A stretch of 64,000 nt of DNA, taken from the NCBI GenBank assembly GCA_964016885.1, contig OZ024746.1, positions 72,912,001 to 72,976,000 of the forward strand. The letters are read 5' to 3'. Numbering within the stretch: position 1 is the stretch's first letter; every line of letters starts with the position of its first letter. Below are positions 2,482 through 62,347 of this stretch, piece after piece. The translations under genes and the position numbers were made by a program. Source of the DNA: Eledone cirrhosa (Eukaryota). The notes beneath the pieces are model-generated. The model saw only the letters and a program-made list of their open reading frames with translations, did not search any database and was not told the DNA's origin.

Positions 2482-2513
2482 CTGCAGCAACTATAAATAG
2501 GCAATACAGCTTT
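2482..2513 (-). CDS. Microexon B1 (32 nt, [10 protein letters not shown]), GC donor
   Basis: Minus strand reads tgttttccag|AAAGCTGTATTGCCTATTTATAGTTGCTGCAG|gcaagt. Confidence 0.68.

Positions 2514-62347: not shown

Follow-up and report, generated by a model that had tools for sequence, protein, structure and literature searches.

This locus raises the question of whether a tandem array of very short, splice-bounded segments within a 64-kb stretch of DNA (the window, 64,000 nt) is a protein-coding gene and, if so, where the gene begins and ends, how the array grew and what its product may be. The first-pass annotation placed 26 exons on the minus strand of the window, and a pattern scan followed by joining of the segments found all of them where it had placed them. 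The short exon of each unit is designated A and its partner B; in the order of transcription, the features are as follows.

Window 1..64000 (G000:C6:72912001-72976000), minus strand: whole window, included in the gene model
Window 62320..62347, minus strand: A exon, 28 nt, phase 1-2
Window 61737..61771, minus strand: B exon, 35 nt, phase 2-1
Window 57584..57611, minus strand: A exon
Window 56754..56788, minus strand: B exon, 35 nt
Window 53634..53661, minus strand: A exon
Window 52508..52542, minus strand: B exon, 35 nt
Window 47408..47435, minus strand: A exon
Window 46231..46265, minus strand: B exon, 35 nt
Window 43067..43094, minus strand: A exon
Window 41916..41950, minus strand: B exon, 35 nt
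Window 38673..38700, minus strand: A exon
Window 37547..37581, minus strand: B exon, 35 nt
Window 33729..33756, minus strand: A exon
Window 32931..32962, minus strand: B exon, 32 nt
Window 31153..31180, minus strand: A exon, the most diverged A of the window, with cysteine and splice sites intact
Window 29842..29876, minus strand: B exon, 35 nt
Window 25879..25906, minus strand: A exon
Window 25296..25330, minus strand: B exon, 35 nt
Window 21077..21104, minus strand: A exon
Window 20276..20310, minus strand: B exon, 35 nt
Window 16587..16614, minus strand: A exon
Window 15670..15701, minus strand: B exon, 32 nt
Window 13886..13913, minus strand: A exon
Window 12568..12602, minus strand: B exon, 35 nt
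Window 3087..3114, minus strand: A exon
Window 2482..2513, minus strand: B exon, 32 nt, GC donor

All 13 A exons of the window are 28 nt long and are bounded by AG and GTAAGT, while the 13 B exons, also preceded by AG, are 35 nt long in 10 cases and 32 nt in three; the donor of the B exons is GTATGT in 12 of 13 and GCAAGT in one (at 2482). A and B exons alternate strictly across 2482..62347 of the minus strand, separated by A-to-B introns of 548-1283 nt and B-to-A introns of 1750-9453 nt; the B|A introns are in phase 1 and the A|B introns in phase 2. Joined together, the 26 exons form 810 nt, in which the three sense frames contain 33, 18 and 0 stops, so that the open frame reported earlier was recovered; the 13 copies are kin, and the stop counts are thus not independent. 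The A+B total is 63 nt in 10 units and 60 nt in three, and both cysteines are kept in all 13 units, as had also been claimed. The single one-codon exonic indel of the first-pass annotation holds as a size step, since exon lengths in the window vary by 3 nt only, but perhaps not as one event: the aligner sets the gap at two differing places, and the length difference in the B exons may represent two separate events.

The GC donor, present once in the array, is preceded by an exon that ends in CAG, a strong context that is typical of GC-AG introns; the B exon concerned is the most diverged B of the window. A 17-bp unit repeated 3.5 times was found at window 47607-47665, with an A exon about 170 nt downstream of it. 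Clipped copies of the upstream flank of A, ending just short of the acceptor and without the exon, are present at window ~1588-1623 (minus strand) and at G000:C6:72842186.

The array extends beyond the window on both sides. Probing of the genome for A and B yielded 27, 26 and 28 matches, each of them at C6 72.80-73.01 Mb. Together, the window and its flanks contain 27 A-type and 27 B-type exons that could be delimited, forming 26 complete A+B pairs, 13 of which are in the window. The units of the 60-kb array described at first are therefore real, but they are not confined to it: the array spans G000:C6:73004656 to 72818286. The features outside the window are listed below.

C6:73006432-73006477, minus strand: candidate signal-peptide exon (hydropathy scan)
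C6 72978271-73004656, minus strand: five upstream A+B units, the first A being 52 nt (flank search)
C6 between 72818286 and 72907924, minus strand: eight downstream complete units and an A without B (72901422-449)
C6:72887543-742: gap of 200 N, in a TA microsatellite
C6:72815670-72815743 (L018:3670-3743), minus strand: terminal coding exon with a tail resembling a GPI signal (found by eye)
L018:3623-3618, minus strand: AATAAA, downstream of the terminal coding exon
C6:72804911 (L019:2911-2942), with an intron remnant at ~3445-3740: orphan B, beyond the stop of the gene

The lengths of the A exons are 28, 46, 49 and 52 nt, all equal to 1 modulo 3, and those of the B exons 29, 32 and 35 nt, all equal to 2 modulo 3; the phase is kept and the frame is free of stops in all 54 A- and B-type exons. 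This retention of phase through length changes is a stronger argument for coding than the stop counts of the window. The gene model covers about 191 kb of the minus strand of G000:C6, with 1825 coding nt in 190,807 bp, and comprises 53 internal microexons of 28-52 nt (27 A and 26 B) among 55 coding exons, the other two being the candidate signal-peptide exon and the terminal exon. Taken singly, the repeat exons encode 9-16 aa. The microexon array is very probably a real coding gene, and it is likely that this is one minus-strand gene in which at least 26 two-microexon units stand between a signal-peptide exon and a GPI-signal exon.

Translation of the joined model gives 423 aa without a stop as far as the A exon lacking a B partner (the orphan A), then 183 aa and a stop. 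By arithmetic, the product would have 598 aa if the orphan A is skipped, or 618 aa with a 32-nt B in the gap, and its predicted length is thus about 600-620 aa. The cysteines are spaced C-x11-C (x12 in two units) and are followed by 7-8 residues before the next unit, more in a few units beside long A exons.

The orphan B at C6:72804911 was excluded from the gene: it is past the stop, its cysteine is lost and its flank on the upstream side has been shifted by about 500 nt. Together with the piece of A-to-B intron at L019, it is regarded as the relic of a further duplication, an insertion of about 500 nt having split its flank. Under strict criteria, a scan for exons found neither an A before this orphan B nor a B in the unit of the orphan A; two weak candidates from a relaxed scan were rejected, as the conserved flanks were absent. 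A pattern for the A|B junction, as in a processed copy, had 0 matches in G000, a pattern result that does not show absence.

Among the matches listed in a stop-to-stop ORF scan of 464 kb, transposon and microsatellite frames predominate. A near-intact LINE with a 1087-aa open frame and endonuclease, reverse transcriptase and PHD matches is located antisense in an intron of the gene (L012:4356-7616, plus strand), and two near-identical LINE-like ORFs of about 1140 aa, in opposite orientation, were found about 120-130 kb upstream of the gene (L037 near 9421, minus strand, and L039 near 2010, plus strand). A GIY-YIG endonuclease fragment, presumably of a Penelope-like element, is present in an intron at window 34672-35148 (plus strand); among 13 candidates it had one homologue, in Octopus bimaculoides, with 54% identity, a single and indirect match that is consistent with an octopod source.

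The first-pass annotation looked for the start of the gene, with any signal exon, past base 64000, and a candidate was indeed found there, as was a stop-bearing terminal exon at the other end. The hydrophobic first exon, judged by eye to encode a candidate signal peptide, is located 1.8 kb before the first A; its start codon is in a GCC-ATG context, its donor is canonical, and it contributes 15 signal-peptide-like codons. A lenient scan for phase-1 exons beginning with ATG gave 70 rows, most of them microsatellite frames, and this exon, the nearest, was taken from them; among 18 scored candidates, no second copy of a signal-type exon was found.

The terminal exon is in phase 1 and has a pyrimidine-rich acceptor; it encodes small residues, then a hydrophobic run, then a stop. 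Such an order is the pattern of a GPI-attachment signal. By inspection, a small-residue omega region, a short spacer and a hydrophobic C-terminus without a cytoplasmic tail can be distinguished, and a GPI-anchored surface protein is the likely product, with good probability for a signal judged by eye. No second copy of the terminal coding exon was found among the best 40 of 971 scored matches, and no Pfam family was assigned to its 23 aa. A dispersed repeat begins at the stop codon and contains the probable polyadenylation signal (L018:3600-3680); a SINE-like element may have supplied the poly(A) site of the gene.

Four sequencing runs from one study, the kind of which is unrecorded, were aligned on L018, which lies outside the window and contains the last three microexons and the terminal exon. 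Runs X1-X3 (about 1400 million letters each) yielded intron pieces of up to 704 nt. Run X4, from another sample, has 88 million contig letters, and its listed pieces are at most 151 nt long; on account of both differences from X1-X3, X4, the kind of which is recorded as '?', is probably an RNA run. Positions 220-359 of X4 record 31 (360 nt, depth 6.3) match L018:3604-3743 with 0 differences, and L018:3743 is the first base after the predicted AG acceptor; the first 219 letters of the record do not continue into the intron. This contig, a single one from one study, thus appears to leave the genome exactly at the terminal acceptor, as a spliced transcript would. The other end of the match (L018:3604) is 14 nt past AATAAA, in the dispersed repeat, where contigs may break anyway. 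A predicted microexon junction was found at none of the 15 joints listed, beside which there are 4711 further joints.

Sequence comparison between units is represented by three kinds of data: divergence, length changes and substitution classes. In the window, the most conserved parts of the unit are the 40 nt by the splice sites, with 0.047 and 0.078 differences per site around A and 0.086 and 0.088 around B. All exon length changes, of which there are at least five, are multiples of three, while in the 120-nt flanks only 2 of 12 indels, counted by eye, are; by a hand estimate, the chance of at least five phase-keeping changes is about (1/3)^5, less than 0.5%. All 26 units have the second cysteine, while the first keeps its register in 24 units and is displaced by one residue in the other two; threonine is kept in 23 and aspartate in 21 of the 26. 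The pN/pS values, which are pairwise and not independent, are 0.197/0.191 in the window (ratio 1.03) and 0.313/0.261 over the 26 units (ratio 1.20). Accordingly, the frame, the splice signals and the cysteine pair are retained, and at most other residues change proceeds at about the rate of silent sites.

These values are suggestive of positive selection on the residues of the repeat; however, pN close to pS is equally expected from neutral decay or relaxed constraint. It is quite possible, if short of probable, that the same anchored gene carries its repeats as a structural spacer or surface-coat element, in which the residues between the cysteines drift because there is little constraint on them. 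The near equality of pN and pS, which is not clearly exceeded, is consistent with such drift, as are the divergence of the A exons (0.159 per site in the window, close to the 0.148-0.157 of the distal intron) and the apparent absence of a distinct head domain ahead of the repeats. The B exons, in contrast, diverge beyond the distal intron (0.237 against 0.136-0.157, the latter being the range of all distal flanks in the window), and over all units pN is greater than pS although the cysteines and several other positions are conserved.

A gene that is real but on a disabled haplotype, or on one making a shorter secreted form, is unlikely. The frame breaks before the GPI exon if the A at C6:72901422 has lost its B partner by deletion, and the 19.8-kb unit of this A indeed has no B: homology to the normal intron ends about 250 nt past it, no B-like match was found in the unit or in other contigs among 27 scored candidates, and joining of the orphan A to the next A leads to a stop after about 7 codons (hand-read). 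Against this, the gap of 200 N is located 13.7 kb after the orphan A, and two further A-to-B introns reach 10.2 and 12.9 kb; moreover, the exons on both sides are intact, the frame is kept if the orphan A is skipped, and the terminal exon appears to be spliced.

It is very improbable that the array consists of several tandem genes, each starting at one of the long A exons (46-52 nt). The beginnings of three internal long A exons do resemble that of the first A, and the DNA after the B at 72866767 copies that after the last B for about 800 nt, but one signal-type and one terminal exon were found among the candidates scored, the introns ahead of two of the long A exons are just 1.4 and 1.9 kb, and the intron upstream of the first A cannot be aligned with that upstream of the long A at 72864786 past about 40 nt. 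Non-coding tandem duplication, with splice-like signals and an open frame inherited by chance from one ancestral copy, can scarcely be credited: the copies share a recent origin (unit identity up to 98%) and the joints listed include no microexon junction, but the length changes keep to multiples of three in the exons and not in the flanks, the cysteines are kept at a divergence of about 0.3, the start and stop exons are in matching phase, and the boundary of the X4 contig lies exactly on an acceptor.

The preferred reading thus remains a single anchored repeat gene, and the view of the first-pass annotation that a functional gene is growing by duplication of an exon pair with its introns is supported by the end exons, the kept phase and the contig ending at an acceptor. 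It is to be amended in that blocks of units were duplicated besides single pairs. The units measure 2.4-20 kb; the window belongs to a young core in which most are 2.6-6 kb, and older, transposon-filled units are located at both ends. Units at exons 4-6-8-10, 20-22-24-26 and 28-30-32 pair at 90-98% identity, which points to duplication by blocks of 3-4 units. The DNA before the first A bears, as judged by eye, the intron tail common to the internal units, and the 28-nt A aligns in register with the final 28 nt of the first A (52 nt). A proposal that the second half of the array is a duplicate of the first intron of the gene found no support in comparison.

In the simplest history, the ancestor would have been a small gene of the order signal-A-B-GPI; unequal crossing-over would have multiplied its A+B cassette, and 24 nt would have been lost from the A exon early and in frame. 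Unequal crossing-over between homologous introns would add or remove single units or blocks of 3-4 units without breaking the frame, since the cassette is of phase 1-1 and any number of units keeps the frame.

By analogy, this architecture may be regarded as that of the exon doublets of LPA KIV-2 and NBPF reduced to microexon size, the likeness being in the mode of expansion and not one of family membership. Features shared with exon doublets are a kilobase-scale unit of two exons and two introns that encodes one module and is phase-symmetric as a pair, introns homologous between units, and higher-order blocks. The LPA KIV-2 unit is described as 5.5 kb long, with two exons and two introns, one module per unit and 1 to >40 copies (PMC4378929); its exons are given as 160 and 182 nt, against 28-52 and 29-35 nt here for a module of about 20 aa, and the present gene has no kringle and a product predicted to be GPI-anchored. 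For NBPF/Olduvai (DUF1220), an exon doublet per domain, a first exon most often of 52 nt and higher-order triplets are reported (PMC9313022). The expansion of these triplets is roughly analogous to the blocks of 3-4 units found here, but the second Olduvai exon is described as larger than average, whereas both exons are microexons here; the likeness claimed is one of architecture. The module of about 20 aa (60-63 nt) is too small for either a kringle (342 nt) or an Olduvai domain (a 52-nt exon plus a large one).

The resemblance to schistosome micro-exon genes (MEGs) that had been suggested for the array turned out to be superficial. MEGs are reported to have tiny coding exons, long introns, a signal peptide and high dN/dS; their exons are mostly symmetric multiples of three that can be skipped singly, their longest protein is given as 189 aa, and they are apparently restricted to flatworms (PMC10526429, PMC4350168). 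Common to both is that most of the coding sequence is in very short exons between long introns. In contrast to MEGs, the present gene has more than 50 exons, a product of about 600 aa and a GPI-like tail, and the likeness is superficial because none of its 53 repeat exons is symmetric, that is, a multiple of three in length.

A likeness of the repeat to Helicobacter CagY is presumably at most an analogy for the fold. Repeat region 2 of CagY is reported to consist of cysteine-spaced, Lys/Glu-rich helical repeats, with length change by in-frame duplication and deletion (PMC2581425), but it is described as bacterial and intronless, with motifs of 31-39 aa, unlike a microexon gene. Chironomus BR3, in which 38 introns run through diverged internal repetition (PMC4192438), is given as 11 kb, against about 191 kb here, and the sponge GranReps, secreted proteins of 10-aa repeats from immune-like cells that were missed by reference assemblies (PMC11703226), are reported to have all repeats in one exon; neither is described as GPI-anchored in these accounts. 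In the literature searched by title and start of abstract, no cephalopod gene of such a kind was found; annotation tables may hold an uncharacterised model. What appears to be new is expansion of exon doublets of the LPA/NBPF type at microexon scale, as compared by architecture.

As for the product, it would enter the ER, where the hydrophobic tail would be exchanged for a GPI anchor. Each Lys/Glu-rich module, the helicity of which was judged by eye, may form a short helical hairpin with one disulfide, and the modules may stack into a rod on the cell surface. The mRNA would have to alternate A and B exons: skipping of an even run of exons would keep the frame, and skipping of one would break it. 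In the weakest step of the proposal, a fixed cysteine scaffold with freely changing residues between would serve surface recognition, or act as a decoy, toward microbes or gametes; such a role of the repeat protein is suggested tentatively, and is about as likely as that of a plain spacer or coat protein. Any A could be joined in frame to any downstream B, and any B to any downstream A, and the modules differ, so that the locus could be a combinatorial generator of variants of a GPI-anchored receptor, single-exon skips giving secreted truncated forms; this is a doubtful and speculative extension. If true, it would mean that a cephalopod diversified its surface or immune recognition from asymmetric microexon pairs.

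Less than 1% of the DNA of the gene is coding, and no coding exon exceeds 74 nt, so that ORF finding, exon-wise homology search and repeat masking would tend to miss it. With over 50 microexons nearly identical to one another, the gene model represents a testable case of strict-alternation splicing. A GPI-anchored protein with repeats that change fast, if restricted to one lineage, would be a candidate for the recognition of self and non-self, of microbes or of gametes in octopods.
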